DNA of 64,000 nucleotides from an uncultured Methanosarcinales archaeon (GCA_964343705.1 CAYFJX010000004.1:69583-133582); one strand, 5' to 3'. Shown: positions 37,096-56,898, numbered from the stretch's first letter. The notes: generated from the letters alone by a model not told the origin. Translations and numbers: made by a program.

Positions 37096-38748
37096 ATGAC
37101 TAATCAAGTACAACCTATATTTATTCTGCCAGAAGGCACACAACGTACCTCTGGAAAGACAGCTCAAAAAAATAATATCACAGCGGCAAAGCTCGTTGGT
37201 GACACAGTACGAACAACACTTGGTCCTAAAGGAATGGACAAGATGCTTGTTGATGGTATTGGAGATATTACTGTTACCAATGATGGAGTTACCATTCTTA
37301 ATGAAATGCAAATTGAACACCCTGCAGCAAAAATGGTTGTTGAAATTGCAAAAACCCAAGAAAAAGAAGTGGGAGATGGGACTACTACTGCAGTTGTACT
37401 TGCAGGAGAGTTTCTAAAAAAAGCAGAAGACCTTCTTGAACAAGATATTCATCCAAGTGTTTTGGCACGAGGTTACCGATTGGCAGCTGAAAAAGCACAG
37501 TCTATACTTCACGGACTTGCAGCAGATGTGACTGTTCAAGACACTGAAAACCTAAAGAAAATTGCAATGACTGCAATGACTGGTAAGGGTGCAGAAGCGT
37601 CAAAAGATAAACTATCTGAGCTTACTGTAAAAGGTGTTATGCAAATTATTGATACTAACCCACATGACATGTCTATTAACGCAGAAAATCTGAAAATAGA
37701 AAAGAAAGTTGGCGGCAGTGTAGAAGACACTGAGCTTGTTAGTGGTATTGTACTTGACAAAGAACGTGTACACCCACAAATGCCAAAGAAAATAGAGCAA
37801 GCAAAAATCGCATTACTTGACACAGCGCTTGAAATAAAAAATACTGAGATTGACGCTAAAATTCAGATCACTGATCCAAGCCAGATGCAGGCTTTTCTTG
37901 ATCAAGAAGAAAAAATGTTAACAAGTATGGTTGAAAAGGTTGCAGCATCTGGTGCAACAGTTATTTTCTGTCAAAAAGGTGTTGATGATATTGCACAACA
38001 CTTTCTTGCAAAAAAAGGAATCTTTGCAGCACGGAGAGTAAAGAAAAGTGATATTGAAGCACTTGCTCGGGCAACTGGTGCAAAGATCATTTCAAACATT
38101 GATGATCTTTCCGCAACTGATCTTGGTAGCGCAGGAGTTGTCGAAGAAGTGACTGTTGGTAGTGAAGAAATGATTTATGTAAAAGATTGCAGCAATCCAA
38201 AAACAGTTACCCTCCTTGTAAAAGGGGGAACTGAACACGTTGTTGATGAAGTAAAGCGAGCACTTGACGACGCTATTGGTGGTGTTGTAAGTGCACTTAA
38301 AAACAAGAAGATTGTTGCTGGTGCAGGAGCTCCTGAGATTGAAGTAACACGGGGCCTACACCAGTTCGCAAACACGCTTTCTGGACGAGAACAGCTTGCA
38401 GTGCAAGCATTTGCAAATGCAATGGAAATTATTCCACGAACTCTTGCTGAAAACGCAGGTCTGGATCCTATTGATGTGTTGACAGAGCTTAAGGCAGCGC
38501 ATGATCAAGGAAGTAAATGGGCTGGTGTTAATGTTGCTGACAATGGCAAAGTGTTTGACGCATGGCAAGCAGGAGTTATCGAACCACTCAAAATTAAAAC
38601 ACAAGCAGTAAGCAGTGCATCAGAAGTTGCAATTATGATTTTGCGTATTGATGATGTTATTGCTGGTCAAGCTGGTAGTGGCGGCGGTGCAGGCGGACCA
38701 CCTCCTGGTATGAGTATGGGTGGTATGGGCGGTATGCCTGGTATGTGA
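37096..38748 (+). CDS. ths: Thermosome subunit (group II chaperonin, CCT/TCP-1 family)
   Basis: Contains [21 protein letters not shown] and the ATP motif GDGTTT. C-terminal GGM repeat tail is [21 protein letters not shown]. Confidence 0.9.
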
Positions 38749-38806
38749 TCAAAATAATTAAAAATCTTATTTTTCTTTTTCTGACTTTTTGTAGGTGATC
38801 TGACTT

Positions 38807-38927
38807 CAGCAGATTCTACAAAATCAAAGAACATTTCAACTGCACAGATTAATTATTATTTAATCCGCCCTGAAGGGCGGTTAAAACTGTGCAATATAAG
38901 ATTTGATTAAGAAAAAGCTCAGGCTTT
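38807..38927 (-). repeat. REP-A intergenic element, copy 1 (reverse orientation; divergent inner hairpin ccgccc-tgaa-gggcgg)
   Basis: Aligns with the copies at 44728, 48681 and 52591. Shares the outer tgcacag...ctgtgca stem and the flanks ctttgattttgtagaat / cctgagc. Confidence 0.7.
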
Positions 38928-38957
38928 ACCTGATTTTACCTAATTCTCGTTATTTTC

Positions 38958-38972
38958 ATAAACTTTTTAAAG
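38958..38972 (+). promoter_or_regulatory. Putative BRE/TATA promoter (aaactttttaaag) for the 39014 gene
   Basis: The aaacttt(t)taaa motif recurs upstream of the 53591 and 53936 genes. Confidence 0.4.
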
Positions 38973-39013
38973 TACAGTGCTTACATTTCTTTATATTGTA
39001 GAGAGGTGTTATC

Positions 39014-39622
39014 ATGCCAAAAGTACCAAAACACGCTGTTGAAGAACCTGAAGAAGATTATGACATTGTTCCCCACAAACGATTGGTGGAATTAGAACAA
39101 CAAGTTTCTCACATACAAAAGAACCCTTTTGGGGCTGTTCCTTCTGGAAAAGAGATGGTTGAAGGAATGCGAGCACTAAACAGAAATCTACACGATCTTA
39201 CTGGCTTGTTCAAAGATGCTGCTGAAGAAATGAAAACAGAGCAGCATGATCTTGAACTTGTTGAAAAACAGATGGGGCCTGTTCTCCACAAGCTTGAGAT
39301 GATTCTTGATCAAAACAGAAAAATTGCAAAAGGCATTATTGCCATTGCAGATATGTTAAAGGATCACGGCCAAAAAATTCATGAAGTGCACAGAAGCACA
39401 GCAGGTCGTTCACCTTTAGGACCAAGTCCTGAAGCACCACCTGGGCATATTAATCCTTTGCCACCTGGTGATATTCCTCCGCCAATGGGGTTTGCACCTC
39501 CACCTGGTGGTGCACCAATGGGACCTCCAGGAATGATGCCTCCACCACGAGGAGCTGGCATGGGACAACCAAAGCCAGGACGAGTGCCACCCTTTGCTCC
39601 ACCACCACGTCCAAAGAGGTAA
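39014..39622 (+). CDS. Coiled-coil protein with a Pro/Gly/Met-rich C-terminal tail
   Basis: N-terminal heptad-rich region. Tail is PPGHINPLPPGDIPPPMGFAPPPGGAPMGPPGMMPPPRGAGMGQPKPGRVPPFAPPPRPKR. Confidence 0.5.
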   Translation: MPKVPKHAVEEPEEDYDIVPHKRLVELEQQVSHIQKNPFGAVPSGKEMVEGMRALNRNLHDLTGLFKDAAEEMKTEQHDLELVEKQMGPVLHKLEMILDQNRKIAKGIIAIADMLKDHGQKIHEVHRSTAGRSPLGPSPEAPPGHINPLPPGDIPPPMGFAPPPGGAPMGPPGMMPPPRGAGMGQPKPGRVPPFAPPPRPKR

Positions 39623-39623
39623 G

Positions 39624-40295
39624 ATGGCTTCTCCAGAACTTCTAATGGAGTCAGGTGAACTGAAAGTACACCCCTTTATTTACAAGCGTTTTATTCGTGC
39701 ACTAGCTCGTGCTGCAAACAAACGTAAGAAACCAAAGATAGGTCATCGTGTAAAAGGTATTCCAAAACAGATTTACACATTCCAAAATCAAGTGCTCAAA
39801 AGAAAAGCACCACCTAAATTGCTTCGGAAAGAACTCAATGAATTGCAACGAAGTATCAATGAAGTTATCAACCAAGAGAAATATGTCATCTCAATTCATG
39901 AACAAGAGCATAAAACACTTGACAAGATTCAAGAAAAGCTCGAACCAGTTTCTAAGGATGTTGCTAAAAAGCTAAGAGAATTAGACAGGAAAAAGAAAGT
40001 ATCACGACACAGAAAAGGCAAACCAATACTCTTGCCTGCTTTGCCAGCTCCGTCTGGGAAACCTGAGGAGCATGAGTCGTTACTGGGGGTTATGGAACCA
40101 GAAAAGCCTAGTTTCACTGTGCAGCATCGTTTTATCATGCAAATAGAAGAGCAGCTCGAGGAGATAGAAGCGCACAAAAAGCAACTCTCACGAAGAAAGA
40201 GCACTGATAAAAAGAAACTTGCTGCACTTGAAAAAACAATCAAAAAGTTCAAACAAAAGCTTTCTGAATTACGAGAAAAACACGTTGCTGGGTAA
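39624..40295 (+). CDS. Basic coiled-coil protein
   Basis: Lys/Arg-rich with long predicted coiled coils. Start chosen at MASPELL; the ORF is open from 39594 and overlaps the previous gene. Confidence 0.45.
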   Translation: MASPELLMESGELKVHPFIYKRFIRALARAANKRKKPKIGHRVKGIPKQIYTFQNQVLKRKAPPKLLRKELNELQRSINEVINQEKYVISIHEQEHKTLDKIQEKLEPVSKDVAKKLRELDRKKKVSRHRKGKPILLPALPAPSGKPEEHESLLGVMEPEKPSFTVQHRFIMQIEEQLEEIEAHKKQLSRRKSTDKKKLAALEKTIKKFKQKLSELREKHVAG

Positions 40296-40297
40296 TT

Positions 40298-40546
40298 TTA
40301 TTGTTCATCTTTATGGTATATGTCCAGAAAGATGAGTGTATTTTCAGCTGGATTATATGCATAAGCTAATCTATAAGGTACAATATATACCTCTCTTGTT
40401 CCTTTTCTGTTGTATCTCATAGGTTTTCCAATCTTTGGATTTTCAATTATCTTTTCAACATGCTTCTTGATTTTTGCTTTTACTGCTTGGTTCTTTATTT
40501 TACTAATTGCTTTTAAGAAATCTTTCTTGTAATCAATATTTAACAT
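40298..40546 (-). CDS. relE: RelE/ParE-family toxin
   Basis: 82 aa. Begins LNIDYKKDFLKAISKI and has the C-terminal YRLAYAYNPAENTLIFLDIYHKDE, a RelE-like pattern. Confidence 0.65.
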   Translation of the reverse strand: MLNIDYKKDFLKAISKIKNQAVKAKIKKHVEKIIENPKIGKPMRYNRKGTREVYIVPYRLAYAYNPAENTLIFLDIYHKDEQ

Positions 40547-40806
40547 GCATGTAACTCCTTAAGAAAATCATCCTTTGTTTTACGTTCAAATTTACCTTTA
40601 TCATGATCTTGCCATGCTTTTTCAACTCGCTCAGCAAAAACAAGATCTTCTTTTAGATCTTCAGCTAGGTCTTTGACATTTTTCATTATGAGTTTGCCCT
40701 TGTCCTCAACAATCAAAAATTCATCACCACTATGGATGTCTTTTCGTAACGGGCTTGGTATAACTATTTGTCCTTTTGTGCTTACTTTTGCAATCGCAAA
40801 TTTCAT
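40540..40806 (-). CDS. AbrB/MazE-type (SpoVT-AbrB) antitoxin
   Basis: AKVSTKGQIVIPSPLRKDIHSGDEFLIVED is a swapped-hairpin motif. It overlaps relE by 7 nt. Confidence 0.65.
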   Translation of the reverse strand: MKFAIAKVSTKGQIVIPSPLRKDIHSGDEFLIVEDKGKLIMKNVKDLAEDLKEDLVFAERVEKAWQDHDKGKFERKTKDDFLKELHAC

Positions 40807-40838
40807 AATATCACCTAGGTAAGGTATGTCTTACTTAC

Positions 40839-41312
40839 TTATAAAGCTTTCTTTTTTTGGATTAACTCATCAAATGAAACAGTGATGAATTGGGGGTTAT
40901 CTAGCCCTAGTTTGTTTGTAATCATTTCTTTGTTGATGTTCTCTCCTGTTAGGATCAAAAACTCACCAACATCTTCAATAAGCTCTATACTGATTTGATT
41001 TTCTTCAAAATCAAAAAATCTCCTTTTCTTTTTTAAAACACATTTTATTTCATGCTTTTTTACTAACTCTTTTTTAGTTTGTTCATTATCAGTAAGTGGC
41101 TGTTTTTCTTTTATTTCAAAACCACCGTCCTTTGCTTGTAATCTTACCAAGAAATTGCCTTTATCAGTTTCACTAACTTTTAGAACCAACCCAACTGGCT
41201 GTGGGTAGTAAGTATCAACTACAGCCACTTCTTCAGAAAATACAGCTCCAGCTGCAACTAGTTGTTTTTCTATTTTTTTATAATTCTCAATCCTAATTTT
41301 TAGTTCTTTCAT
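40839..41312 (-). CDS. CYTH-like domain protein (class IV adenylyl cyclase / triphosphatase fold)
   Basis: Begins MKELKIRIENY, an ExExK-like start, followed by alternating charged beta-strand patterns. 157 aa. Confidence 0.4.
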   Translation of the reverse strand: MKELKIRIENYKKIEKQLVAAGAVFSEEVAVVDTYYPQPVGLVLKVSETDKGNFLVRLQAKDGGFEIKEKQPLTDNEQTKKELVKKHEIKCVLKKKRRFFDFEENQISIELIEDVGEFLILTGENINKEMITNKLGLDNPQFITVSFDELIQKKKAL

Positions 41313-41336
41313 AGAATAAGAAAAAAGAAAAGAAAA

Positions 41337-41708
41337 TTATAAATCTTTTGCCATAACTGTACTTCGCTTGTTACCTTGTGCTCGCTCAACTGCGTTCTTA
41401 ACCATCATGTTTAGAACATTGTTAAGTCCTTCTGCTAGGTCACCTGCGACATTACATCCTTCGCATGCTTCCTTAAGCTTGGATCGCACTACTAGCATTG
41501 CTCCTGCCTTATCACAACAGTAATTGTAGCCAACATCCTTTGGCATAACAGTACTTCGTTTGTTGTCTTTTGCTCGAGCTACTGCGTCTTTAAGTAGTTC
41601 TCGTGCTTTTCCGTCAAGTGCTTGTGCTAGGTCTCCAGCAACATTTGCATTGCCAGCTACTTCTTTTATTTTTGCCTTTACAATTAATAGGTCTGCCATG
41701 TTTTTCAC
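41337..41708 (-). CDS. Doublet histone-fold protein (two tandem histone-like repeats in one polypeptide)
   Basis: Two ~60-aa repeats: ..AGNANVAGDLAQALDGKARELLKDAVARAKDNKRSTVMPKDV and ..CEGCNVAGDLAEGLNNVLNMMVKNAVERAQGNKRSTVMAKDL. The tail resembles the histone motif HAGRKTIKAEDI. Confidence 0.55.
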   Translation of the reverse strand: MKNMADLLIVKAKIKEVAGNANVAGDLAQALDGKARELLKDAVARAKDNKRSTVMPKDVGYNYCCDKAGAMLVVRSKLKEACEGCNVAGDLAEGLNNVLNMMVKNAVERAQGNKRSTVMAKDL

Positions 41709-41865
41709 CCCTCCATGAGTTTTACTTGTTTTATTGCCTGAAATTGCTGTTTTCAGACGTCTTACGCTTTTACGTGTTCGAATCTAATTTGTCATCTTAT
41801 ATAAAGATTGTGGAAACACACCGCAAACTATTTATATATGCCTCGATCATTATTCTATACAAAAA

Positions 41866-42075
41866 ATGGGCTCTCACAACGTACAAAAGCTGATTTTGCT
41901 TTTTTCAACTGTTATCCTTTTCTCAGGGTTAGTCCTCATCTTTGCAGATGGGGCTACTTTGACAGGGGCTGCAGTTACTGACTTGCCCGCCCCAAGCCCC
42001 TTAATTTTATTTGTGGTGTTGGGAATAACAATTTACATTATTTTAGGGATTACACAGACACATGGCAAAGATTGA
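41866..42075 (+). CDS. Small two-TM membrane protein
   Basis: 69 aa, hydrophobic. Overlaps the start of the downstream gene. Confidence 0.35.
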   Translation: MGSHNVQKLILLFSTVILFSGLVLIFADGATLTGAAVTDLPAPSPLILFVVLGITIYIILGITQTHGKD

Positions 42076-42949
42076 TTTAATTACAGCGGGTGGTCAAGCT
42101 GTTATAGAAGGCGTTATGATGCGTTCTACTGAGAAGGTTGCAGTAGCAGTTCGTACACCAAACAAAAAAATTGCCATGCAAGAAAAAACAATCAAACCAC
42201 TTAGTAAAAAATACAAATTTCTTGGCTGGCCACTTGTGCGTGGTGTAATTGGCATGGCTGAAATGATGGTGGTAGGTATCAAAGCACTGAACTGGTCTGC
42301 GAACCAAGCCCTTGGTGAGGAAGAAGAACTTTCATGGTATCAGCTTGCGATTACTATGATGATTTCTTTTGGTTTTGCGATTGTTATTTTCAAATTTGTT
42401 CCTTTGCTTATTGCAGAGTTTGCCAACAAGTCAAGCTCACTGGTGCAAGAAAACTATCTTTTGTTTAACCTGGTAGATGGTTTGTCACGAATTGCTTTAT
42501 TTTTGTTGTACATTTTTTGTATTTCGTTCATGGATGATATCAAACGATTGTTTATGTATCACGGCGCAGAACACAAAGCAGTGCACTGTTATGAACACTA
42601 CAAGGGTGACAAGAAAAAACTTACTGTGAAGAATGTGCAATCATTTACCACACTACATCCAAGATGTGGGACGAGTTTTATCCTTATTGTTCTTATTTTG
42701 AGTGTGATGGTGTATAGTTTCATCCCTAAGGATTTTGGCTTTTGGGGAAAGCTAGGATTACGACTTCTACTCCTCCCCATTCTAGCAGGTGTCTCTTATG
42801 AGGTACTGCGTTTCAGCGCAAAGTATCGTGAGAATTGGTTCATGAAAATTATTATTTGGCCAGGGCTTATGACACAGAAATTAACAACAAAAGAACCAGA
42901 AGATGACATGGTTACAGTAGCAATTAAAGCATTGAAGGCTGTAATTTAA
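42062..42949 (+). CDS. DUF1385-like membrane protein
   Basis: Conserved core AVIEGVMMR...YHGAEHKAVHCYE, characteristic of this family. Confidence 0.5.
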   Translation: MAKIDLITAGGQAVIEGVMMRSTEKVAVAVRTPNKKIAMQEKTIKPLSKKYKFLGWPLVRGVIGMAEMMVVGIKALNWSANQALGEEEELSWYQLAITMMISFGFAIVIFKFVPLLIAEFANKSSSLVQENYLLFNLVDGLSRIALFLLYIFCISFMDDIKRLFMYHGAEHKAVHCYEHYKGDKKKLTVKNVQSFTTLHPRCGTSFILIVLILSVMVYSFIPKDFGFWGKLGLRLLLLPILAGVSYEVLRFSAKYRENWFMKIIIWPGLMTQKLTTKEPEDDMVTVAIKALKAVI

Positions 42950-42952
42950 TTC

Positions 42953-44665
42953 TTACCTATGTCCAAAGCAGAACACGTGCACATCGCCTTCTCGTCGGTC
43001 AAGCCGACAGAATCCAACCCGCTCAAACTGGACAGTGCTGCCGATTTCAAGATCTTTTATTCTTTGCTCACCCAGGCCATCATGGTATTCACCATCTGGC
43101 ATTTGCAACTTTACTTTGATTAAGTCAGCGTCACCTGGTAGCCAGTGAATAATTGCCTTTCCTTGTTGCTTGAATTTTTCATAATCAAGGCTGTCAAACA
43201 CATACTCTGTTCCTTTCTTTGTGAAGTTGATGCAATCTATGAGTCGAATTAATGCTCCTTCATCTAGTTTTTGTATGCGTTCATAATCTTCTTTTGCAAG
43301 GTAAAACGTCTTGCCTGTCTTAAATTTCCTGCCACCCTTTCTATGTTCTGGGTGTATGTCAAGTTCTACCTCTTGTTCTGGTGCGCCCTGCACTGTTATT
43401 GCAATGGGTTCTTGAGCAAAGAAGAATCTGTTGGAGCTTGCGTCAATTATGTCTTTGTTAAACGCATTGATGGATTTGAAAAACTCATTGGCTTGCACTT
43501 TTTTGTCAACAAGTGTTACACCAACACTGAGTGCGTATTTTTTGAAGGCATTTGGTTGGTAGCCTCGACGCTTTAGTGCTTGGATAAACGGAATTCGTAT
43601 GTCTTCCCAGCCAGTGTATTGTCCTGTCTCAATTGCTTTCCTGGTTTCACTAGCAGACACTTTAAGTCCTTCAAAGTTGATTCTACCAATATGCAGGTAC
43701 TCTGGTTTTTTCCATTTTAAATACTCAAAAATGTATTCTTGTCGTTTAGTATTGTCATAATGATCTTTGCCTCGCAGTACATGGGTGAGTCCCATGTCAT
43801 GATCATCAATGGCAACAGCAAAGTTAAGCAAGGGCCACACCTTGTACTTTTTCCCTTGACGAGGATGTTCATTTTCATTTATTCGTAAAAGCGGGAAGTC
43901 TCGCATTGCGGGATTCTTATGTTTCATATCTGTCTTGAGTCGTACTACTGCGTCACCTTCAGTAAAGCCATTAAACATTTTACGCCATAACTCCTCATTG
44001 GTTTTGACACCATTTTTTCGACAGGGGCATTCTTCTTGTTTCTTGGACATTTCTCTAAATTCATCACCAGTACAAGTACACACATACGAAAATCCTTTTT
44101 CAATAAGCTGTAATGCATGCGTGTAATACAACTCCATGCGGTCAGATTGAATAAGTGTTTGGTGTGGAACATCGTTACACAGCCAGTTAAAGTCTTGCTC
44201 AAGTAATGCATAAGCATTTGGGTCAATATTGTCAGGGTTAGTATCTGCAATTCTCAGAATGAGTCGTCCTTTGTATTTTTGTGCATACGCAAAGTTCAAC
44301 ATCAAAGGGTAGGCGTGACCAATGTGCATTGGACCGGAAGGTGATGGCTCAAACCGAAGAACCACTCTGCCTTCTTGCACGTTTTCTAGTTCTTTAATTT
44401 CTTTTTTTGTTGTTTCTTTTTTAGCAACAAGATCTGCACTTGCTTCTAATTCTTTTTGTTGGTCTTCAAGTGACATGGCATTTACTTCTTGGACTATTGC
44501 CTGGATTCGTTGCATGACAGTAGCCATGTCTTCCTTGTTCTTTTTCAGATCAGGGTATTGCCCAAGTATTTTCCCTACAATTTTCCCAGGGTTTGCTTTG
44601 CCTTCGTACTGCACTGCGTTCTGGAGTGCGAGTGCTCGTATTGTTTTTTCAATGACTCCTTTCAT
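42953..44665 (-). CDS. gltX: Glutamyl-tRNA synthetase, archaeal/eukaryal type
   Basis: HIGH motif in RFEPSPSGPMHIGHAYPLMLNFAYAQ. 570 aa with a class I catalytic core and an archaeal-type C-terminal anticodon-binding region. Confidence 0.85.
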   Translation of the reverse strand: MKGVIEKTIRALALQNAVQYEGKANPGKIVGKILGQYPDLKKNKEDMATVMQRIQAIVQEVNAMSLEDQQKELEASADLVAKKETTKKEIKELENVQEGRVVLRFEPSPSGPMHIGHAYPLMLNFAYAQKYKGRLILRIADTNPDNIDPNAYALLEQDFNWLCNDVPHQTLIQSDRMELYYTHALQLIEKGFSYVCTCTGDEFREMSKKQEECPCRKNGVKTNEELWRKMFNGFTEGDAVVRLKTDMKHKNPAMRDFPLLRINENEHPRQGKKYKVWPLLNFAVAIDDHDMGLTHVLRGKDHYDNTKRQEYIFEYLKWKKPEYLHIGRINFEGLKVSASETRKAIETGQYTGWEDIRIPFIQALKRRGYQPNAFKKYALSVGVTLVDKKVQANEFFKSINAFNKDIIDASSNRFFFAQEPIAITVQGAPEQEVELDIHPEHRKGGRKFKTGKTFYLAKEDYERIQKLDEGALIRLIDCINFTKKGTEYVFDSLDYEKFKQQGKAIIHWLPGDADLIKVKLQMPDGEYHDGLGEQRIKDLEIGSTVQFERVGFCRLDRREGDVHVFCFGHR

Positions 44666-44727
44666 GGGTTGTTGGGGTTATTTGGGGTTTTTATAGTTTG
44701 TTATTGGGTGTGCTTTGGGTAAAATTA

Positions 44728-44862
44728 GTTTCAGCTGGGGCTGTTTCAAAACCATATCTGACATTGCACAGTTTTAACCGGGCCGTGTTCCGGCCCGGAT
44801 TTAACGGCAAAGCCGTTCTATCTGTGCGTTTGAAATACTCTTTGACTTTGAAGAACTTGCAG
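44728..44862 (+). repeat. REP-A intergenic element, copy 2
   Basis: gtttcagctggggctgtttcaaaa...tgcacagttttaaccgggccgtgttccggcccgg...ctgtgcg...ctttgactttgaagaacttgc. Confidence 0.7.
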
Positions 44863-44953
44863 ATGTCAGATCCCAACCGTATCCTGCCTTATTTTTGTTT
44901 CATGCCTTTAACTTGCCGAAATACTTATAAACTATTACAACCTTGCATCTTTC

Positions 44954-45181
44954 ATGGGACAGAAACAATCAACCATTATTCCAAAGGCACCTGTGGGCAG
45001 AATTATTTTGAATTCTGGTGCAAAGCGGGTAAGCCAGGATGCCATTGATGTGTTTACTGACGTGCTTGAAGATCTTGCTGAGCAAATTGGCACGCACGCA
45101 GTGAGTATTGCAAAGCATGCTGGTAGAAAAACTGTTCATGATTCTGATATTAAACTTGCAGCTAATAGTTTAAGAAGGTGA
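44954..45181 (+). CDS. Archaeal histone (HMf family)
   Basis: LPKAPVGRIILNSGAKRVSQDAIDVFTDVLEDLAEQIGTHAVSIAKHAGRKTVHDSDIKLAA is a canonical archaeal histone fold. 75 aa. Confidence 0.85.
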   Translation: MGQKQSTIIPKAPVGRIILNSGAKRVSQDAIDVFTDVLEDLAEQIGTHAVSIAKHAGRKTVHDSDIKLAANSLRR

Positions 45182-45994
45182 TTATACTTGATCTGCTATA
45201 ACATGTTTTGCAATGTATTGTTCATTGCACGTTCTGGTCCTGTCTAATTCTCCAATAATTCTTTCTGGTTGACTCCCAAAGCGTTGCATCATCAAGTTGA
45301 GCATCAAATCACGACGTTCTTGGTAAGAAATTCCTTCAAATAAAGCATGGTCTTCTGCAGTAACAGGTCTATATTGAGGTGCTCCTATTTCTCCAGTGAG
45401 GGGATCATAACCTTTTTGCGTTAAGTCCATTACAAGGACTTCCATGTGTACTTGTTCGCCATACTGTTTGATTTCATCTGGTGTAAACTCTCGAGCACCA
45501 GCTCGTAAGTACATGGCACGTAATTGGTCAGTTGTTAAAGGGTATCGTGAGTCTCCTTGTCCTGGTTTTTTTGGTTCACCAACAAGTTGCATGTCCCGAC
45601 CATTTGCAAGCTTAACTGATTGGAGCAAAAGTATTTTTGCAATGCCACTTTTGAAATGGTCTGGGTCAGTAGTAAGCATGCTTAATTCAAGAAAGCGTGG
45701 ATCAAGACGAGCAATTCCTGCATTTTCCATAAATCCAGCATACCCAAGAACATCACCTTTGTATCCTGGCATTGCGGTTGCCACATTTCGTGCCACTAAT
45801 GCAAATTCATATGCTGTGCATGAAGAACAGTTTTTGTTTGCTGTGTTAATTCCAGTAGGTATTGTTTCAGCAAGTGATATGCCTACTTCTACAGGTGTTC
45901 GCTCATCAGAAAAAGGCTTGGTTCGTAAATTTAATACTACAGAATCTAAGTCATGCTCATGCACAATTCTACCTGGTAAATGTATTCCACCCAT
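45182..45994 (-). CDS. Hypothetical protein
   Basis: 270-aa ORF with no confident motif. Confidence 0.4.
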   Translation of the reverse strand: MGGIHLPGRIVHEHDLDSVVLNLRTKPFSDERTPVEVGISLAETIPTGINTANKNCSSCTAYEFALVARNVATAMPGYKGDVLGYAGFMENAGIARLDPRFLELSMLTTDPDHFKSGIAKILLLQSVKLANGRDMQLVGEPKKPGQGDSRYPLTTDQLRAMYLRAGAREFTPDEIKQYGEQVHMEVLVMDLTQKGYDPLTGEIGAPQYRPVTAEDHALFEGISYQERRDLMLNLMMQRFGSQPERIIGELDRTRTCNEQYIAKHVIADQV

Positions 45995-46098
45995 TGTCTC
46001 TCAGTTTCACCTTTATTTAGGTATTAGAACATTGTTGCATATATGAACTTAATGTTATTATGGTAACAGAATTAGCTAAAAAGTGTTATTCTTGCTGA

Positions 46099-46575
46099 CT
46101 AGGCAGCCTGGTCTATGTTATATGCTTGGAGCTGTGGTGTATTGAGCGAAACAACATCTGCTTCAAGCGTGGGTTGGTCATATCTTGTATTCCTATAATC
46201 CAATGCCTGTGCCCATCCACCGCGAACTTCAATAACTGGTCGTGGTATGCCGTTATACCCTGCTCTAGGAGAAAACGCACCTGTACTTCTCATGGCAAGC
46301 CTATATGCTTCATCACGACGCAAGCCTTTAGGTAGCTCCACACGCTCACCATTGCGACACGCTTTTTGTATACTTTGCACTAGCTCGGATTGCCCTATTT
46401 GTTCACAAGCCTCGTCAACACTAGTGCCTATCATGCAAAATACACTCACAGACAATATCTTAGATGGATTGTTGTCTGTTCGTAATAGTAAAGGCCATCT
46501 AATATTTTTGTCCTTTACTAAACCTGGGGGTTTTAGTCCTTCTTCCGCACCATCACCTCTTTGATCAGTGCCCAC
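46099..46575 (-). CDS. Hypothetical protein
   Basis: 158-aa ORF with no recognisable motifs. Confidence 0.35.
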   Translation of the reverse strand: MGTDQRGDGAEEGLKPPGLVKDKNIRWPLLLRTDNNPSKILSVSVFCMIGTSVDEACEQIGQSELVQSIQKACRNGERVELPKGLRRDEAYRLAMRSTGAFSPRAGYNGIPRPVIEVRGGWAQALDYRNTRYDQPTLEADVVSLNTPQLQAYNIDQAA

Positions 46576-46800
46576 ATTACTATATTGGTCTAGCTATTTA
46601 ATATGTTGGTATAGGGAGTATATACCTAGAATTACTTATTCAACAATACTTTTCTCAATGCTTGGTAACGAGCATTACCTTCTTTCAGAATTTTCAAAGA
46701 GTTTTTGTAATTGAGCTTCAAGCTCTGACGTGTCTGTATAACTAGTATCTGCAGTCATACATGTGGAAAATTTTTAAGATATTTAAGGCTTTCTAGATGC

Positions 46801-47733
46801 TTAAAAATGATCCCTATGCCCACCATTAGGAAAACATTGCTGGTAGAAGTCACACTGGCCAGTTGACCATCGACAGAGAGGACTTGGCTTCATGGGGTAC
46901 TCTTTAATCTCTTTTGTTTGTGTTGCAAAATGTATTTGTTCAATTTCAAACTTTGCAAAGTCAACAAGTTCTTGGTCAACATCAAGACATACTTCTTTGC
47001 CTGACTTGAGAAATACAATCCCTACGCGGTGGGGCTTGCTGCCATGTTTTTGCTCGTACAGCAATGCGTAAATAGCAAGTTGCAATTTGTAATTGTCAGT
47101 CATTTTACTTGACTTACTTGTCTTATAATCCATTAATGCAATCTTGTTCTCGCCTTTTGTATCTTGGTATTCTTCGATGTAATCAATAAAACCACGCACC
47201 ATGTGTTCTTCACACTTAACACCTTGTTCTAATGCAATTGGCTTAAGTTTTTCAAATGCTTCTTTGACTGTTTTTCCTTCTAGTTCACCGCGAAGACGCA
47301 CTAAGAAATTATTTAACCAGTTCGCAAGCATCATAATTGTTTCTTCATAGTAAAAAACAATCTTGTCTTCAGTCAAGCCAAGAGTGATTATTTTTTTTCG
47401 GTTCTTGTTCCACAGTGCCGTAAACAAATTTTTTACATAGTGTGTCATGTACTCCACATAGTTCTCAGGATTCATGTTGTCTGTGTTGATTTCAAAGAAT
47501 TTTTCAAGAACAGTGTGTGCAATTTTTCCACGGACAAGGTGGATGTTTTCCTTGCCTGGCAGTTTCAAAACATATTGGTAGTAATATTTTCGTGGGCATT
47601 GCTTGTGTGTGAGAATGGAACTAGGAGATTGTACTCTACTTGCGATTTCTTTCATTGACTTCTTTGGTGTGAAGTCTTTGTTAATAACATTGAGTTCAGA
47701 ACCTGCCTCCATTTTTTGCATCACCTCTCCCAT
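46801..47733 (-). CDS. Cas4-like PD-(D/E)xK nuclease with a 4Fe-4S cluster (RecB-family exonuclease, DUF83-like); stand-alone
   Basis: N-terminal Cys in HKQCPRKYYYQYVL. RGFIDYIE...ALMDYKTSK matches the D...E-x-K core. C-terminal CRWSTGQCDFYQQC provides three further Cys. Confidence 0.65.
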   Translation of the reverse strand: MGEVMQKMEAGSELNVINKDFTPKKSMKEIASRVQSPSSILTHKQCPRKYYYQYVLKLPGKENIHLVRGKIAHTVLEKFFEINTDNMNPENYVEYMTHYVKNLFTALWNKNRKKIITLGLTEDKIVFYYEETIMMLANWLNNFLVRLRGELEGKTVKEAFEKLKPIALEQGVKCEEHMVRGFIDYIEEYQDTKGENKIALMDYKTSKSSKMTDNYKLQLAIYALLYEQKHGSKPHRVGIVFLKSGKEVCLDVDQELVDFAKFEIEQIHFATQTKEIKEYPMKPSPLCRWSTGQCDFYQQCFPNGGHRDHF

Positions 47734-47826
47734 TCTGCTTTGTGCTGGTTTATAAATTTTTTCAGCTTTGGATAATATGTTTTTAGCATAAACTAAATAA
47801 ATGGGCTATTATTCTTAGCGTGTTAT

Positions 47827-47954
47827 GGGCTGGTAGTTAAATCTGGTATAACGCTCGGCTGGCAGCCGAGACCGAGACAAACTCGGCGGTTAAGGCTCCG
47901 GGTTCAAATATCCATGGGGGGACTCCTCGGGAATTGAAAGTCCCGGCCAGTCCA
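47827..47954 (+). tRNA. tRNA-Ala (anticodon GGC) with two putative non-canonical introns (variable region and T-loop)
   Basis: Acceptor gggctgg/ccagtcc with G3:U70. Anticodon stem ctcgg/ccgag, loop ctGGCag. ~18-nt insert accgagacaaactcggcg in the variable region. T stem ccggg/cccgg is interrupted after ttcaaa(t) by about 31 nt. Discriminator A. Confidence 0.55.
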
Positions 47955-47978
47955 TATTTTTTTCTTTGATAATAAGGG

Positions 47979-48097
47979 CGCCCGCCCCGGGATTTTCATC
48001 CAAACACTTGTTGTTGCCTAGATTTTGAACCCGGATAGCTGGTAAACCAGCAGCTGGGATCTCAACCCAGTGCAATACCAAGTTATGCGAAGCGGGC
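47979..48097 (-). tRNA. tRNA-Leu (anticodon GAG), class II, with a putative ~31-nt intron in the T-loop
   Basis: Minus-strand acceptor gcccgct/ggcgggc. Anticodon stem ctggg/cccag, loop ttGAGat. Long variable hairpin gctgg-ttta-ccagc. T stem ccggg/cccgg separated by ttcaaa + insert + at. Confidence 0.55.
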
Positions 48098-48157
48098 ATT
48101 TTCATATGGTTCTTATTTAGTTTTACGAAAAATATTTATACTTCATTACATCTAAGT

Positions 48158-48199
48158 GCTTTGGATCTCAACTCAGTGCGTCCAAGTTATACGATGCGC
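48158..48199 (-). pseudogene. Partial tRNA-Leu-like fragment (5' two-thirds: acceptor/D/anticodon arm), degenerate
   Basis: Minus strand ..gcgcatcgtataacttggacgcactgagttgagatccaaag aligns with the tRNA-Leu 5' part (..cgcataacttggtattgcactgggttgagatcccag). Confidence 0.45.
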
Positions 48200-48233
48200 T
48201 TTTTTTCTTTTCATTTTTTCTTTAATTATAATG

Positions 48234-48355
48234 AGGCGAGGGCGGGATTTTCATCCGCGGTAGATACTTCCACTCACACTTTTGAACCCGCGTGATACGG
48301 ATGTATCATCCTGACCTTCAACCAGGTGCCTTAGACCTGACTCGGCCACCTCGCC
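48234..48355 (-). tRNA. Class II tRNA (Ser/Leu-type long variable arm) with a putative T-loop intron; anticodon assignment uncertain
   Basis: Acceptor ggcgagg/cctcgcc is a perfect stem. Anticodon arm cctgg-ttgaagg-tcagg reads GAA under standard framing, which is atypical for class II. Variable hairpin gatac-atcc-gtatc. T stem gcggg/cccgc is interrupted by about 31 nt. Confidence 0.45.
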
Positions 48356-48394
48356 AGATGGAAAATTATTTATAGTTGTATTATTTTACAAGTG

Positions 48395-48446
48395 ATTGGA
48401 TGTATCATCCTGATTTCCAATCAGGTACTTGACCAAACTCAGTCAC
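48395..48446 (-). pseudogene. Partial tRNA-Ser-like fragment (anticodon arm cctga-ttGGAaa-tcagg plus start of variable arm), no T arm or 3' acceptor
   Basis: Shares tcaggatgatacatcc with the adjacent class II tRNA. Confidence 0.45.
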
Positions 48447-48680
48447 TTTTTTTCTTTTTTTCTTTACTTTTCGTATAGTTTTCGAGCTATTTAAGTTCTG
48501 GGTCCACAGATGTCCAGTGTCCAGTGGGTGTTTCGGTTTCGTCGGAAAATTTTCAAAACAGTAGTAGAAGCTTTCTAAAAGATGTCTAGTAAAAGAAATC
48601 GAAGATGTTCTGTTAAAATTCGTAAAGTATCCGGAAAAAAGCCTGTCCAGTAGAAAAACAAAAATGAGTGTGCAAAGTTA

Positions 48681-48812
48681 GTTTCAGCCTGAGCTGTTTC
48701 AAAAACCTTGCCTAACATTGCACAGTTGTAACCGGGTCGGGTTCCGACCCGGATTTAAAATTATTAATCTGTGCATTTGAAAATATTCTTTGATTTTGAT
48801 GAATTTGCTGCC
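48681..48812 (+). repeat. REP-A intergenic element, copy 3
   Basis: gtttcagcctgagctgtttcaaaaa...tgcacagttgtaaccgggtcgggttccgacccgg...ctgtgca...ctttgattttgatgaatttgc. Confidence 0.7.
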
Positions 48813-48910
48813 CCTTATTCACCTACAAAACCCCAGATACCCAGTTTGACCTTACTCCCAAACCCTTACCATCACAAACTATAAAAAGGCTGTATCCTAA
48901 AACTAATTTC

Positions 48911-49669
48911 ATGTTCCAGCAAAACATAACCTTTGAAAACGAAAAAGGCCAGCATTACTCTGGTGTGCTTCGTGTTCCAAAAGAAGATGGCAAGCATCCA
49001 GCTGTTCTAATCTGTCACGGTTTTTTAGAGAATAAAGACAATGGGCTTATTGCAGATATTGCCAACGGTCTTTCGTACTATGGCTTTGTTACTATGCGTT
49101 TTGACTTTTTGTTTCATGGTGAAAGTCATGGTGCTGCTGAAGAAATGACACTCACACAACAAGTGCAAGATATTCGTCAAGCAGTTGACTATCTTAAAAC
49201 AATTGAACAAGTTGACACACGAAAAATAATCCTACTTGGCCATGACCTCGGAGGTGTTGGATGTTTGCTGGCTAATCATGAAGAAGTTGATGGGATCATT
49301 CTATTGAATGTACGCGTTGATACTAAGAAATTTATTATGTCGTTTATGACTGACATGGACTTGCGTGAATGGTTGCGCACTGGATGGTTGGTGATTAATG
49401 ATGTTAATCTTCGCAAAGAGTTTTACCAAGACCTTGTCCGTTATGATGTTATCAAAGAAATTCAAGATGAGAAAATTCCTATTTTAATTATTCATGGTAC
49501 CAATGATAAACGGGTTCCAGAACATGAAGCTCGGGAATTATTTCACCAAGCTGCACAGGCAGAACTTGAATTAGTTGAAGGTGCTGATCATCACTTTTCT
49601 AACCAAGAACATAAAATGTATGTGATAGAATTTATGGCAGATTGGGTAAATAAGATATTAGGGACGTGA
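48911..49669 (+). CDS. Alpha/beta-hydrolase fold protein
   Basis: HGF oxyanion region LICHGFLENKD. Nucleophile-elbow-like ILLGHDLGG (G-H-D-L-G, Ser replaced). Late HG/Asp and His (IIHGTNDKRV...ADHHF). Confidence 0.55.
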   Translation: MFQQNITFENEKGQHYSGVLRVPKEDGKHPAVLICHGFLENKDNGLIADIANGLSYYGFVTMRFDFLFHGESHGAAEEMTLTQQVQDIRQAVDYLKTIEQVDTRKIILLGHDLGGVGCLLANHEEVDGIILLNVRVDTKKFIMSFMTDMDLREWLRTGWLVINDVNLRKEFYQDLVRYDVIKEIQDEKIPILIIHGTNDKRVPEHEARELFHQAAQAELELVEGADHHFSNQEHKMYVIEFMADWVNKILGT

Positions 49670-49670
49670 T

Positions 49671-50777
49671 TTATTTCCCCTGAATTACATCTTTCTGTAC
49701 TTGCTTGAATCGAGCATCAGCTTGTTTTAGAATGTCTGTTGTTTCTTTTTGATATCTGGTGTGTAATGCTTCACTGTTCTTACTTGGTTTGTCAAGGTCT
49801 ACAAGAGTGCCACGCATACATGCGTATCCTCGCGCTATCCATCCATCAGATGAAATAACAGCGTCTCGTTCTGGATTGTCAATCTTTCCATCCATGTCTC
49901 CATCGACAATATAGTCTGGGGTGCTCGACAAGCCTCCATCACTAGAATGTCTGATCTCAACAAGGTCGCCATACCATGAGACTGGTGTGTGGGTGTGGTT
50001 TACTAATCGGTCACATGTTTTTTTTGGATGGTGTTTTTGTCCACCGTTCATTGGTTGTGTGGTGCACGATGCTTTTCTATTTACTGATTCTTCATAGGTA
50101 CCAACTGCTTTTGTAGCTACAACTTTTCCATCTTTTATTTTGTTTCCAGTATATTCTTTTTCTCCAACTCTATGTCGAAGTTTAATGGGTTTCTCAATAA
50201 GATCATGAATTAAAAAATTATGTTTACCTGGATTTGGTGCGAGATTGTTAACTCCATCAATTGAAAATGCACAGTTTTTGTCAACTGGGTAATATTCATC
50301 TTCTTCAATTAAGGGTCCTTGTGTTGCAATTCCTGGTGTTAAATCTCTGATTGGTGGGTGGTATGGTTCTGCAAATGTATTACCTACTAAATGTGTTGCT
50401 GCTGCAACTGCAATAGCAAGTCCTACAGCACTAATTTTAGTCAATATGTGCATGTTATCATATCCTTCAGCCACGCTTCCTAGTATTTGCTTATGCCATG
50501 GCATTGCCTTGTTTGCTTTTTGTTCCCAGTGTTGCTGTGCATAGCCAACAACTTCTTCTGGTGTCATATGTTCTAGTAATCCAGAAAGTTCTTGTATTGA
50601 GTGGGTGGTTGCTTCATCTCTGTTGGTATCATCCAACTGAGCGTGTAGTGCTAAGTCTAGGATAGCGTCATGATCTGCTGCATCAAATTGGTCTAAAGGG
50701 ATGCCTGATCGGCGAAGAAGGTCTTCAAGTTGTTTATCCAGCTCAGCTGTTCTAGATTTAGTTTTGGTGCTCATCAC
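49671..50777 (-). CDS. Membrane-anchored hypothetical protein (one central TM, large C-terminal ectodomain)
   Basis: 368 aa. TM helix ISAVGLAIAVAAATHLV. Confidence 0.4.
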   Translation of the reverse strand: MMSTKTKSRTAELDKQLEDLLRRSGIPLDQFDAADHDAILDLALHAQLDDTNRDEATTHSIQELSGLLEHMTPEEVVGYAQQHWEQKANKAMPWHKQILGSVAEGYDNMHILTKISAVGLAIAVAAATHLVGNTFAEPYHPPIRDLTPGIATQGPLIEEDEYYPVDKNCAFSIDGVNNLAPNPGKHNFLIHDLIEKPIKLRHRVGEKEYTGNKIKDGKVVATKAVGTYEESVNRKASCTTQPMNGGQKHHPKKTCDRLVNHTHTPVSWYGDLVEIRHSSDGGLSSTPDYIVDGDMDGKIDNPERDAVISSDGWIARGYACMRGTLVDLDKPSKNSEALHTRYQKETTDILKQADARFKQVQKDVIQGK

Positions 50778-50899
50778 TCTTGGGGATAAAATAACCCTAT
50801 TTAAACCTTTCGGTTTTTACCACTAATAAGTGGTCTTTTGGGGTGTTTTTCGGCTGTTTCACCACTAAGCTTAAATACGACCAGCAAGCCCTCATTTTC

Positions 50900-52114
50900 A
50901 TGAAAGCAGTCATACTTTGCGCAGGAAAATCAACCAGAACGTATCCTTTGACAGTTACACGGCCAAAACCAATGGTCATGGCAGGCAATAAAACACTGCT
51001 TGAGCTCACACTCACACAACTTGCTCAGCTAGGCACTGTCAATGAAGTAATTCTAGTGGTGGGGTATCGAAAAGAAATGTTGCAAGAACATGCATTGCAC
51101 CTAAGAGCCAAACTAAACTTGCCCTTTATTATTAGCTTTGCTGAGCAAACAGAACAAAACGGAACAGCACACGCACTGCTCAGTGCAAAAGACAAGCTCA
51201 CTGAAGAATTCCTCCTGCTCCATGGGGATGACTTGTACTTTGCAGATGATATGAAAAACTTACTACAACACAACAACGCATTCTTGGTAAAAAAAGTTGC
51301 TGACCCAAGCCAATTTGGTGTCTGTATTACCAACGAAAATAACACACTCAAACACATCCATGAAAAACCAACAGAGTTTGTTGGTGATCTTGTAAACATA
51401 GGGTGTTACAAACTACAACCAAACATACTAACTCTTCCAAACATTCAACCTTCTGGCAGAGGAGAACTTGAAATAGTTGATTACCTCACAGCTCATGCGC
51501 AACAAACACCCGTTATGTGTGTTGAAGCACAAACATGGATTCCTATCCCATTCTCATGGAGCTTGCTTGAAGCAAACAAGTTCCTCCTTTCACAACTACA
51601 ACCAAACAACACAGGAATTATTGAACACAATGTCACACTCAAAGGTGCAGTGAGCATTGGAAAAAACACCATCATAAAAGCAGGCACCTACATTGAAGGG
51701 CCAGTTAGTATTGGGGACAATGCAGTTATCGGTCCAAACGCCTACATCCGTGGTCCAACAAGTATTGGTAACAACTGTAAAATTGGAGCAAGCGTAGAAA
51801 TCAAAAACTGCATTATTATGAACAACAGCAATGTTCCTCACCTCTCATACATGGGTGATTCAATTCTCAGTGAAAACGTTAACATTGGTGCTGGCTCAAT
51901 TACTGCAAATGTCCGCCACGATGAAGGAACCATCAAGACCATGCTCAAAGGTCAACTAGTTGACACTGGCCTGAAAAAGTTTGGCACTGTTGTTGGCGAC
52001 AATGCACGCATAGGAATCAACACATGTATCTACCCTGGTAGGAAAATCTGGCCAAGTCAAGGTACGGTACCAGGAGCTCAGGTTACACAAGACCTCAATG
52101 AGGACAAAACATAA
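50900..52114 (+). CDS. Sugar-phosphate nucleotidyltransferase with a C-terminal left-handed beta-helix (GlmU-like bifunctional architecture)
   Basis: MKAVILCAGKSTR and TVTRPKPMV match the NTP-transferase Gly-rich loop. The C-terminal hexapeptide repeats are (I/V)G.N..IG. Confidence 0.7.
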   Translation: MKAVILCAGKSTRTYPLTVTRPKPMVMAGNKTLLELTLTQLAQLGTVNEVILVVGYRKEMLQEHALHLRAKLNLPFIISFAEQTEQNGTAHALLSAKDKLTEEFLLLHGDDLYFADDMKNLLQHNNAFLVKKVADPSQFGVCITNENNTLKHIHEKPTEFVGDLVNIGCYKLQPNILTLPNIQPSGRGELEIVDYLTAHAQQTPVMCVEAQTWIPIPFSWSLLEANKFLLSQLQPNNTGIIEHNVTLKGAVSIGKNTIIKAGTYIEGPVSIGDNAVIGPNAYIRGPTSIGNNCKIGASVEIKNCIIMNNSNVPHLSYMGDSILSENVNIGAGSITANVRHDEGTIKTMLKGQLVDTGLKKFGTVVGDNARIGINTCIYPGRKIWPSQGTVPGAQVTQDLNEDKT

Positions 52115-52556
52115 AAACAATGAGTTCCAGCTGATCACAATGACAGGCAAAGACTGCTTATTTTGTAAAATAATCAAAGGAGAACTTCCTTGTTCTAAAA
52201 TCTATGAGGATGAACAAACTTTTGCATTCTTAGATATTAGTCCAGTAAATCCAGGGCATACACTTGTTATCCCAAAAGCGCATTGCAAAAATCTTCTAGA
52301 CATGCCAGAAGATGATGCAGGTGCTGTATACAAGACTGCAAAGAAAGTTGCAATTGCAGTTAAAGAAGGTACTGGCGCAGGAGGCGTTACTGTCACCATG
52401 AGTAATGAGAAACCTGCAGGTCAAGTAGTGTGGCACGCGCATGTTCATGTTATTCCTCGGTTTGAAAATGATGGCTTTAAGTTATGGCCAGGCAAGCCGT
52501 ACAAAGAAGGTCAGCAAGAAGAAATGTTAAAGAGAATTAGTGAGAAATTGAATTAA
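52098..52556 (+). CDS. HIT-family hydrolase (histidine triad)
   Basis: Contains CLFCKII, NPGHTLVIPKAH and the triad WHAHVHVIPR. The start may be internal, MTGKD at 52140. Confidence 0.7.
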   Translation: MRTKHKNNEFQLITMTGKDCLFCKIIKGELPCSKIYEDEQTFAFLDISPVNPGHTLVIPKAHCKNLLDMPEDDAGAVYKTAKKVAIAVKEGTGAGGVTVTMSNEKPAGQVVWHAHVHVIPRFENDGFKLWPGKPYKEGQQEEMLKRISEKLN

Positions 52557-52590
52557 AGAGTATTCTAACTTTTTGTAAGTGAGCTAGGAG

Positions 52591-52722
52591 CGGCAAATTC
52601 TACAAAATCAAAGAGAATTTCAACTGCACAGATTGAATAAATTTAAATCCGGGTCGGAACCCGACCCGGTTAAAACTGTGCATGCTTGATATGATTATGA
52701 AACAGTCCAAGCTGAAACTAAC
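52591..52722 (-). repeat. REP-A intergenic element, copy 4 (reverse orientation)
   Basis: The reverse complement reads gtttcagcttggactgtttcataat...tgcacagttttaaccgggtcgggttccgacccgg...ctgtgcag...ctttgattttgtagaatttgc. Confidence 0.7.
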
Positions 52723-52862
52723 TTTGCTCATTGCTCAAAACAGATTTTTTATCCAGATCTTACCTCTTTCTTTGTCCAGGCTGAAACTGATTCTGCTTTA
52801 TTACTGTTGCTTAAGCACAAAATATATAAAACTAAGACACATTACTCATGTAAGGTGATAGC

Positions 52863-55570: not shown

Positions 55571-55695
55571 TTATTTTGTGAGAAATTGCGTCAACCAGAT
55601 CGCGAGAGTTGTTGTTATTCTTAAGTAATTAAAAAAGAAAAACTTATAAATAATCAGCACTTTTCAATACCAAAAAGTATGATTGAGGTATACTC

Positions 55696-56897: not shown

Positions 56898-56898
56898 A

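Follow-up and report, generated by a model that had tools for sequence, protein, structure and literature searches.

Introduction

BOX elements are 100-200 nt long, with conserved end modules that pair across a variable middle, and they can affect the expression of neighbouring genes. REP/BIME repeats stabilise or terminate the upstream mRNA. Elements of the IS200/IS605 type carry hairpins and have neither terminal inverted repeats nor target duplications. DPANN archaea have tiny, tightly packed genomes. Here we describe a four-copy family of intergenic elements in a 64,000-nt stretch of DNA deposited as that of an uncultured Methanosarcinales archaeon (GCA_964343705.1 CAYFJX010000004.1:69583-133582; this whole stretch is called the window, and positions count from its first letter). 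The family is real, far beyond chance, its hairpin fold looks selected on comparative grounds, and we tentatively place it near the structured intergenic repeats of the REP, ERIC and BOX kind.

The best GTDB relatives of the window's GltX protein are Woesearchaeota metagenome-assembled genomes (MAGs), at no more than 55% identity, and the host is a Woesearchaeota-like MAG (DPANN). Exact copies of window proteins are present in ENA assemblies of PRJEB17505 and on an NCBI contig.

Four copies of one intergenic element

A covariance model was built from the four copies and used to scan the whole window with filters off. Exactly four copies came back, with scores of 165-185 bits and E values from 1e-26 to 7e-30; the next-best match in the window reached 15 bits, and nhmmer agreed on the four. 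We name them c1 to c4 and keep the forward orientation defined in an earlier, sequence-only reading of the window.

c1, 38784-38940, minus strand: 157 nt, the most diverged copy; covariance-model score 165.3 bits, E 1.6e-26
c2, 44718-44885, plus strand: 168 nt; 171.7 bits
c3, 48671-48833, plus strand: 163 nt; 176.8 bits
c4, 52568-52728, minus strand: 161 nt; 184.7 bits
possible fragment, 52774-52796, minus strand: 15-nt copy of the 5' flank (AGTTTCAGCCTGGAC), about 50 nt upstream of c4, read in the sequence

The possible fragment was aligned by nhmmer to model positions 2-24 at E 4.3, which is not significant alone. All four copies lie inside one 14-kb stretch, with none in the other 60 kb sampled; the sample is about 74 kb of one uncultured genome, made up of the window and 10 kb beyond its left edge. 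The flanks are unrelated between copies, and both orientations are present.

The sequence-only reading had placed four copies at these sites and judged them not to be expected by chance. Both points are borne out by the model scores and by the tail pattern TCTTTGATTTTGWWGAAYYTGC, which, with up to three mismatches allowed, matched all four sites and nothing else in the window (0.00 matches expected from 100 shuffles). Its 5'-flank consensus is right for c2, c3 and c4 and misses c1, where the flank has diverged. The unit is longer than the roughly 135 nt first proposed, since homology reaches further and gives 157-168 nt. Calling the copies near-identical overstated their similarity: pairwise identity is 69-83% (17-31% diverged) and mean column identity 78% in a MAFFT alignment of the four.

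Read in the forward orientation, the unit begins with a 5' segment G(G/C)(T/A)AAA(A/G)T(T/C)AG and a small hairpin CAGC-N4-GCTG (AAGC...GCTT in c1), followed by TTTCA(A/T)AA and some 14 nt of variable sequence. The middle holds an invariant 7-nt arm TGCACAG, then TT(T/G)TAA and a GC-rich hairpin. After this hairpin come ATT(T/A)AA and an A/T-rich variable linker, which in c2 is replaced by a second small hairpin, CGGCAAAGCCG. On the 3' side of the linker lie ATCTGTGC(A/G) and TTGAAAT, then the block TCTTTGA(T/C)TTTG and after it GAA..TGC. A tail TCAC(C/T)TACAAAA is present in c1, c3 and c4, that of c2 having diverged.

c1 5' hairpin AAGC-CTGA-GCTT, 38915-38926, minus strand
c1 outer stem, TGCACAG 38887-38893 with CTGTGCA 38841-38847, minus strand
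c1 inner hairpin CCGCCC-TTCA-GGGCGG, 38865-38880, minus strand
c1 block TCTTTGATTTTG, 38819-38830, minus strand
c1 tail TCACCTACAAAA, 38787-38798, minus strand
c2 5' hairpin CAGC-TGGG-GCTG, 44732-44743, plus strand
c2 outer stem, TGCACAG 44765-44771 with CTGTGCG 44822-44828, plus strand
c2 inner hairpin CCGGGCCG-TGTTC-CGGCCCGG, 44778-44798, plus strand
c2 block TCTTTGACTTTG, 44839-44850, plus strand
c3 5' hairpin CAGC-CTGA-GCTG, 48685-48696, plus strand
c3 outer stem, 48719-48725 with 48769-48775, plus strand
c3 inner hairpin CCGGGTCGG-GTT-CCGACCCGG, 48732-48752, plus strand
c3 block TCTTTGATTTTG, 48787-48798, plus strand
c3 tail TCACCTACAAAA, 48819-48830, plus strand
c4 5' hairpin CAGC-TTGGA-CTG, 52703-52714, minus strand
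c4 outer stem, 52676-52682 with 52625-52631, minus strand
c4 inner hairpin, identical to that of c3, 52649-52669, minus strand
c4 block TCTTTGATTTTG, 52603-52614, minus strand
c4 tail TCACTTACAAAA, 52571-52582, minus strand

The outer stem TGCACAG/CTGTGCA of the sequence-only reading stands for c1, c3 and c4, the 3' arm of c2 being CTGTGCG. Its inner hairpin ccgggtcgg/ccgacccgg holds for c3 and c4, the only two to share CCGGGTCGG/CCGACCCGG; c2 has CCGGGCCG/CGGCCCGG and c1 has CCGCCC/GGGCGG in its place. By inspection, no C/D-box, H/ACA, K-turn or bulge-helix-bulge motif is conserved across the four copies.

Fold and constraint

RNAalifold predicted four helices on the forward strand, namely the small 5' hairpin, the 7-bp outer stem, the GC hairpin and a 9-bp closing helix that pairs the 5' end with TTGATTTTG and is rich in G-U pairs existing on that strand only. 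On the reverse strand the first three were predicted again and the closing helix was not. In the model-fitted alignment, standard pairs fill 98.2% of the pair cells, compared with 21-43% when the partners are slid. Compensatory double changes occur at five pairs, of which the GC hairpin holds four and the small 5' hairpin the fifth. The outer stem is invariant but for a U-G pair in c2, and among the four copies no compensatory change was seen in the closing helix. Two further candidate helices, GTTTCAA/TTGAAAT and TTTTGTAG/CTACAAAA, reach 78-88% pairing and have no covarying positions.

Invariant positions make up 87 of the 155 ungapped columns, and the variable columns are clustered (runs test, P=0.001). 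A column that differs between c3 and c4 is more likely to differ between c1 and c2 as well (odds ratio 3.4, P=0.004). Since variable sites coincide in independent pairs of copies, the pattern suggests constraint on each copy rather than plain decay after insertion; with four sequences it is suggestive and not proof.

Genomic context

The genome is compact, with a median intergenic spacer of 51 nt. The spacers that hold c1, c2, c3 and c4 measure 265, 288, 1177 and 306 nt, five to six times the median or more. Each copy is non-coding and lies strictly between genes, as the sequence-only reading had it, and the neighbours it named (thermosome, gltX and histone, tRNA cluster, HIT) are confirmed by Pfam labels and Rfam tRNA matches. 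c1 follows the thermosome stop codon (38748) at a distance of 36 nt, and the gene starting at 39014 has its promoter motif 19 nt from this copy. c4 starts 12 nt past the stop codon of the HIT gene (52556), which with an NTP-transferase gene precedes it (Pfam labels). The mRNAs of the thermosome and HIT genes would thus read into c1 and c4, which begin just past their stops. The reverse strand of both copies has a T5 run at its start, 36 and 12 nt past these stops. c2 sits between the divergent promoter motifs of gltX (44687-44700, minus strand) and the histone gene (44919-44932, plus strand). c3 has an intron-bearing tRNA cluster on one side and, on the other, the promoter motif (48875-48888) of an alpha/beta-hydrolase gene whose start is at 48911.

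The genes of this tRNA cluster (47820-48480) bear introns and were not found by ARAGORN, which reported no tRNAs. At a relaxed threshold Rfam matches 48234-48355 on the minus strand (40.8 bits) and 47827-47906 on the plus strand (22 bits), and the cluster also holds a Leu-like gene at about 47963-48095 (minus strand). Two truncated pieces resembling tRNA 5' halves, with A/T-rich boxes of their own, were seen by eye at about 48140-48195 and 48395-48445 (both minus strand) and could be split tRNA genes or pseudogenes. Elsewhere in the window, a 128-nt tRNA gene with a long intron at 16584-16711 (plus strand; Rfam 51.6 bits) was also not found by ARAGORN.

Promoters near the copies were scored with a position weight matrix built from the window's own promoters. 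The motif CAAACTTTATAAAC has a median score of 11.5 bits and begins 35-36 nt before the ATG in most genes, so that mRNAs are expected to be largely leaderless. The copies always lie outside this 35-nt promoter-to-ATG interval, and every strong motif near them belongs to a neighbouring protein gene. Forward scores were 8.3-9.2 bits for c1, 2.5 for c2, -2.4 for c3 and 0.7 for c4; reverse scores were 6.5, 0.2, -2.7 and -0.9 bits. CAAACTTTATAAAC was not found upstream of c2, c3 or c4 in either orientation. The sequence CAAACTATAAAAA beside c2 and c3 was rejected as a part of the element, being the genome's general promoter consensus.

Relatives and searches for further copies

The closest relatives found are distant. 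GltX is 84% identical on JGI contig L033 and about 60% on L042 (GCA_030651375.1), and the closest thermosome proteins are at 80% and 77%. The gene order of L042 follows that of the window (thermosome, a 202-aa gene, histone-like, DUF1385, gltX, histone, Cas4-like). Only 72 nt separate gltX from the histone gene there, and by eye the two TATA boxes stand back to back, whereas in the window 218 nt lie between the corresponding promoter motifs and this gap holds the 168-nt c2. There is no room for c1 after the thermosome gene of L042 or L044, where the next gene begins 10 and 36 nt past the stop, respectively. The absence of c1 and c2 from the syntenic spacers makes the copies lineage-specific gains or, less parsimoniously, the remnant of repeated losses.

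The covariance model and nhmmer found no copy in 46 fetched loci (about 0.5 Mb of related loci), which included 30 GTDB gltX loci, L033, the thermosome relatives L042-L044 and the 10 kb beyond the left window edge; the model search that the sequence-only reading had proposed thus gives four copies in the window and none in these loci. The exact 3'-block pattern CTGTGCNNTTGAAAN{2,5}TCTTTGANTTTG had no match in GTDB genomes, JGI metagenomes or IMG/VR, nor had the exact central-domain pattern TGCACAGTTNTAACCGN{8,30}CGGATTNAA in IMG/VR or JGI metagenomes. Plasmids and phages gave chance fragments only (blastn). An Rfam scan of the window at gathering thresholds returned RT-16 and one tRNA, both away from the copies, and at E<=5 no family matched any copy within 38600-53000. 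A tail-like sequence seen by eye at the start of contig L033 was rejected, since neither the covariance model nor nhmmer reported it; an A/C-rich sequence had been over-read.

The stretch from the thermosome to the histone gene is an insertion hot spot. A ParE/MazE toxin-antitoxin pair and a 157-aa gene (40298-41312) are extra in the window relative to L042, and L042 has an island of Bro-N, IS240-type transposase and restriction-modification genes directly after its thermosome gene (11637-15374). An ENA contig (ERZ930062; L036) folds back on itself over 5405-6045 at the point matching window positions of about 42497-42511, and this is probably an assembly chimera and not a real variant.

Nature of the element

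We lean, with reserve, towards a lineage-specific structured intergenic repeat similar to REP, ERIC or BOX, kept for its fold, the hairpin acting in read-through or weakly initiated transcripts. Units of about 160 nt occupy intergenic spacers in either orientation, and syntenic relatives lack them in the corresponding spacers. After dispersal each copy has retained the 7-bp outer stem around the GC hairpin, whose sequence changes while the pairing stays, together with the small 5' hairpin and several invariant blocks, and the linkers have drifted. The unit may act in folded form in single-stranded nucleic acid, most probably RNA. At c1 and c4 this RNA could come from read-through of the thermosome gene and of the HIT operon, and at c2 and c3 from weak or bidirectional promoter activity. 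Its likely role would be that of a 3'-end, stability or insulating module, or of a protein-binding hairpin. Given a median spacer of 51 nt and mostly leaderless mRNAs, 160-nt units kept at four places are unlikely to be free passengers.

Several points weigh against such a repeat. Fitting the alignment with the covariance model biases the counts of pairs in favour of the structure. The two strands do not differ consistently in folding energy, and wobble pairs in the well-supported helices favour each strand once, so that neither assigns a strand. Clustering of all copies in 14 kb is odd for a dispersed repeat, and absence in relatives as distant as these (thermosome 77-80%, GltX about 60% in L042) may reflect loss and not gain. 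Four copies from about 74 kb of one genome make copy number, distribution and statistics weak. Finally, c1 has a promoter-like motif of 9.2 bits, from which transcription would start 8 nt within the 5' border of the unit.

The sequence-only reading had offered three classes for the family. A structured small RNA (sRNA) agrees with the selected-looking fold (five compensatory pairs, 98% paired) and is weakened, as a gene with its own promoter, by the promoter motif that three of the four copies lack. Likeness to a miniature inverted-repeat transposable element (MITE) extends to lineage-specific insertion, and stops at the lack of terminal inverted repeats, of a consistent target duplication and of a transposase in the window. 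A sequence-specific palindromic protein-binding site does not fit, because the stem sequence has been replaced while complementarity was kept.

The element is probably not an independent, strongly promoted sRNA gene. In full, that explanation would have four paralogous sRNA genes with promoters of their own, each yielding a rod-like structured RNA of about 135-165 nt with a function in trans, whether through antisense pairing or as a scaffold for proteins, and we regard it as rather unlikely. The compensatory changes together with conserved unpaired blocks would suit it, as would the closing helix with TTGATTTTG and its strand-specific G-U pairs, the c1 motif just mentioned, T5 runs 3' of c1 and c2, and A/T-rich boxes that were seen by eye upstream of every copy, 20-29 nt from its 5' border. 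It is weakened because three of the four copies are without the genome's promoter motif, their forward scores of 2.5, -2.4 and 0.7 bits standing against a median of 11.5 and the reverse scores being poor too. The closing helix, moreover, has no compensatory changes and is predicted for the forward strand only, the promoter region lies outside the repeated unit, and the unit is neither conserved in relatives nor matched in Rfam.

Mobility by a transposase encoded elsewhere in the genome, with the copies being MITEs whose terminal repeats and target duplications have decayed, is quite improbable. The copies are indeed small, non-coding, intergenic, present in both orientations and absent from the orthologous sites in L042 and L044, and their overall fold as an imperfect palindrome is rod-like in the way typical of MITEs. 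Two short Logan contigs end inside c1 (38849) and c2 (44772), at edges of the outer stem, which hints weakly at additional copies or at an assembly problem at the hairpin. The ends tell otherwise. Aligning one end with the reverse complement of the other gave at best 6-12 nt, A/T-rich and differently placed in each copy, and the check for target-site duplications at the copy ends found no consistent one, the longest k-mers shared at junctions being 6-8 nt at inconsistent offsets. An octamer, AAAGTTAG, stands at both ends of c4 (7 of 8 positions match in c1) and is lacking in c2 and c3; its 5' occurrence lies inside sequence conserved among the copies. Pfam detected no transposase, integrase, reverse transcriptase or Orc1/Cdc6 in the open reading frames (ORFs) of the window, and the precomputed labels of the genes on the flank include no transposase or integrase, which extends this cover to about 74 kb of genome. 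Copies diverged by 17-31% also keep the same blocks in independent pairs, which neutral decay would not give.

Two other forms of DNA mobility were rejected. For integron attC sites, the RYYYAAC/GTTRRRY core sites are absent on inspection, both orientations occur beside housekeeping genes and the window has no integrase. For a composite transposon or cassette, the orientations of the pairs differ, and L042 synteny is continuous through the positions of c1 and c2.

A function at the DNA level, with the copies as clustered platforms for a chromosomal protein (origin-recognition-like, segregation or regulatory) in one 14-kb region, is very unlikely. Four copies do lie within 14 kb adjoining the minimum of cumulative GC skew at about 50-52 kb, and promoter motifs stand 18-19 nt away from c1 and c2. 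The invariant GCAGTTGAAAT is reminiscent of mini-ORB motifs, and the 5' part holds inverted motifs of the TGAAAC type. In Pyrococcus ORB and mini-ORB repeats, TTCC and GAA motifs are perfectly conserved (PMC1904270); the element has GCAGTTGAAAT but no TTCC, so that the resemblance fails at the core. Pfam detected no orc1/cdc6 in the window, and origins hold their repeats in one spacer rather than over 14 kb. Exchange of the stem for another complementary sequence also points to structure and not to a sequence-specific duplex site, and GC skew over the 64 kb mostly tracks gene orientation.

Cumulative GC skew falls from the window start to a minimum at about 50000-52000 and then rises, with a run of plus-strand genes after 52.8 kb. 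This minimum may be an origin or terminus signal, or an effect of gene orientation only.

Descent from an IS200/IS605-type element, as a relic or as a derivative such as a PATE-like or omega-RNA-like right end, is highly improbable. It would account for the lack of terminal inverted repeats and target duplications, the asymmetric ends and the internal hairpins, and the reverse strand of c1 and c4 reads as the tail of an ORF (..FYKIKE.FNCTD, stop) followed by hairpins, which recalls omega-RNAs overlapping the 3' end of tnpB. That stretch is preceded by stops within 17 codons, is frameshifted in c3 and reads through in c2. The window has no TnpA or TnpB, the hairpins are central (not subterminal) and small-5' and are mutually dissimilar, both orientations occur within 14 kb, and no Rfam family matched the copies even at E<=5.

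There is equally little to recommend a SINE (short interspersed element)-like, retro-mobile small RNA in an archaeon, that is, a lineage-private structured RNA spread by RNA-mediated copying. Hints at it are the lack of inverted ends, the recurrence of the 5'-terminal octamer after an A-rich 3' tail (CTACAAAAAG; all eight positions match in c4, seven of them in c1) and an RT-16 RNA motif 5 kb away. The terminal repeats are absent in c2 and c3, though, and no reverse transcriptase was recognised in the window.

The RT-16 RNA at 57965-58108 (plus strand) is a full-length Rfam match of 71.7 bits to a motif associated with reverse-transcriptase genes. Two ORFs beside it, 55842-56897 and 56839-57912 (about 350 aa each), had no reverse-transcriptase match in Pfam, PADLOC or PDB.

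Coding, as a small ORF or as fragments of a duplicated gene end, is effectively refuted by the lack of a common open frame or a protein match: single copies are open in some frames (about 60 stop-free codons cross c2 on the forward strand), but each frame is broken by stops or frameshifts in one copy or more. Indels shift frames, and inspection showed no three-base period in the substitutions. The peptide-like readings of either strand recur in no full-length gene of the window. A concatenated six-frame translation, meant also to reveal further copies through spurious ORFs, matched nothing among 5.8 billion proteins at E<=10.

Other features of the window

A second repeat, of 75 nt, occurs in two copies at 7844-7918 and 55502-55576 (plus strand), 92% identical, with sharp borders and a T run at its end. 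It has no Rfam match and could be a small RNA present in two copies. The gene of ribosomal protein S7 has a duplicated 3' end (58393-58496 and 59031-59134; about 88 nt identical, 104 nt at 93%), and the two S7 ends bracket a small Fic/DOC gene (58587-58979, minus strand); this looks like an insertion into the end of the S7 gene that restored the reading frame. Two bacterial-type domains were found, a sigma-54 interaction domain (AAA+ activator) with a Fis-type HTH at 18178-20484 (minus strand, E 3e-65) and a Sigma70 region 1.2 match at 24247-25608 (minus strand), which probably reflect horizontal acquisition.

Comparison with known systems

On present evidence this is a modest, lineage-restricted repeat family to which no known element class or Rfam family was matched. 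If the fold is selected, the units would be among the very few candidate structured non-coding elements described for Woesearchaeota, and would offer a handle on transcription termination, insulation or regulation in such genomes. If they are instead a mobile element without inverted ends, they would point to an unrecognised route of mobilisation in these organisms.

Like the multi-copy bacterial sRNA families Qrr and LhrC, the copies are several diverged paralogues that keep the same hairpins and blocks. In those families, however, the promoter is part of each copy, whereas here the motif is missing at three of the four. MITEs such as Correia/NEMIS and those of Sulfolobus are likewise short, non-coding, intergenic and lineage-specific, with a rod-like fold; they differ in their terminal inverted repeats and target-site duplications, which were looked for here and not found.

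The likeness to ERIC, BOX and REP/BIME is a functional resemblance by known descriptions. REP/BIME repeats are extragenic hairpins often placed just past stop codons, as are c1 and c4, which start 36 and 12 nt past theirs; REP units are 20-40 nt long and spread by RAYT (IS200-like) transposases, in contrast to units of about 160 nt in a window with no such gene. BOX elements of Streptococcus pneumoniae, of which a genome has more than 100 copies against the four found here within 14 kb, have no sequence relation to the present units; they are modular intergenic repeats, and here too conserved blocks surround a variable linker, c2 having an extra hairpin module. ERIC (IRU) elements are bacterial, from enterobacteria, and have recognisable inverted ends, whereas the element described here is archaeal, with ends that are not inverted and no similarity in sequence. 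Like ERIC, which are imperfect palindromes of about 127 nt, it is intergenic, lies in either orientation, varies in its presence and can be drawn as a long irregular stem-loop.

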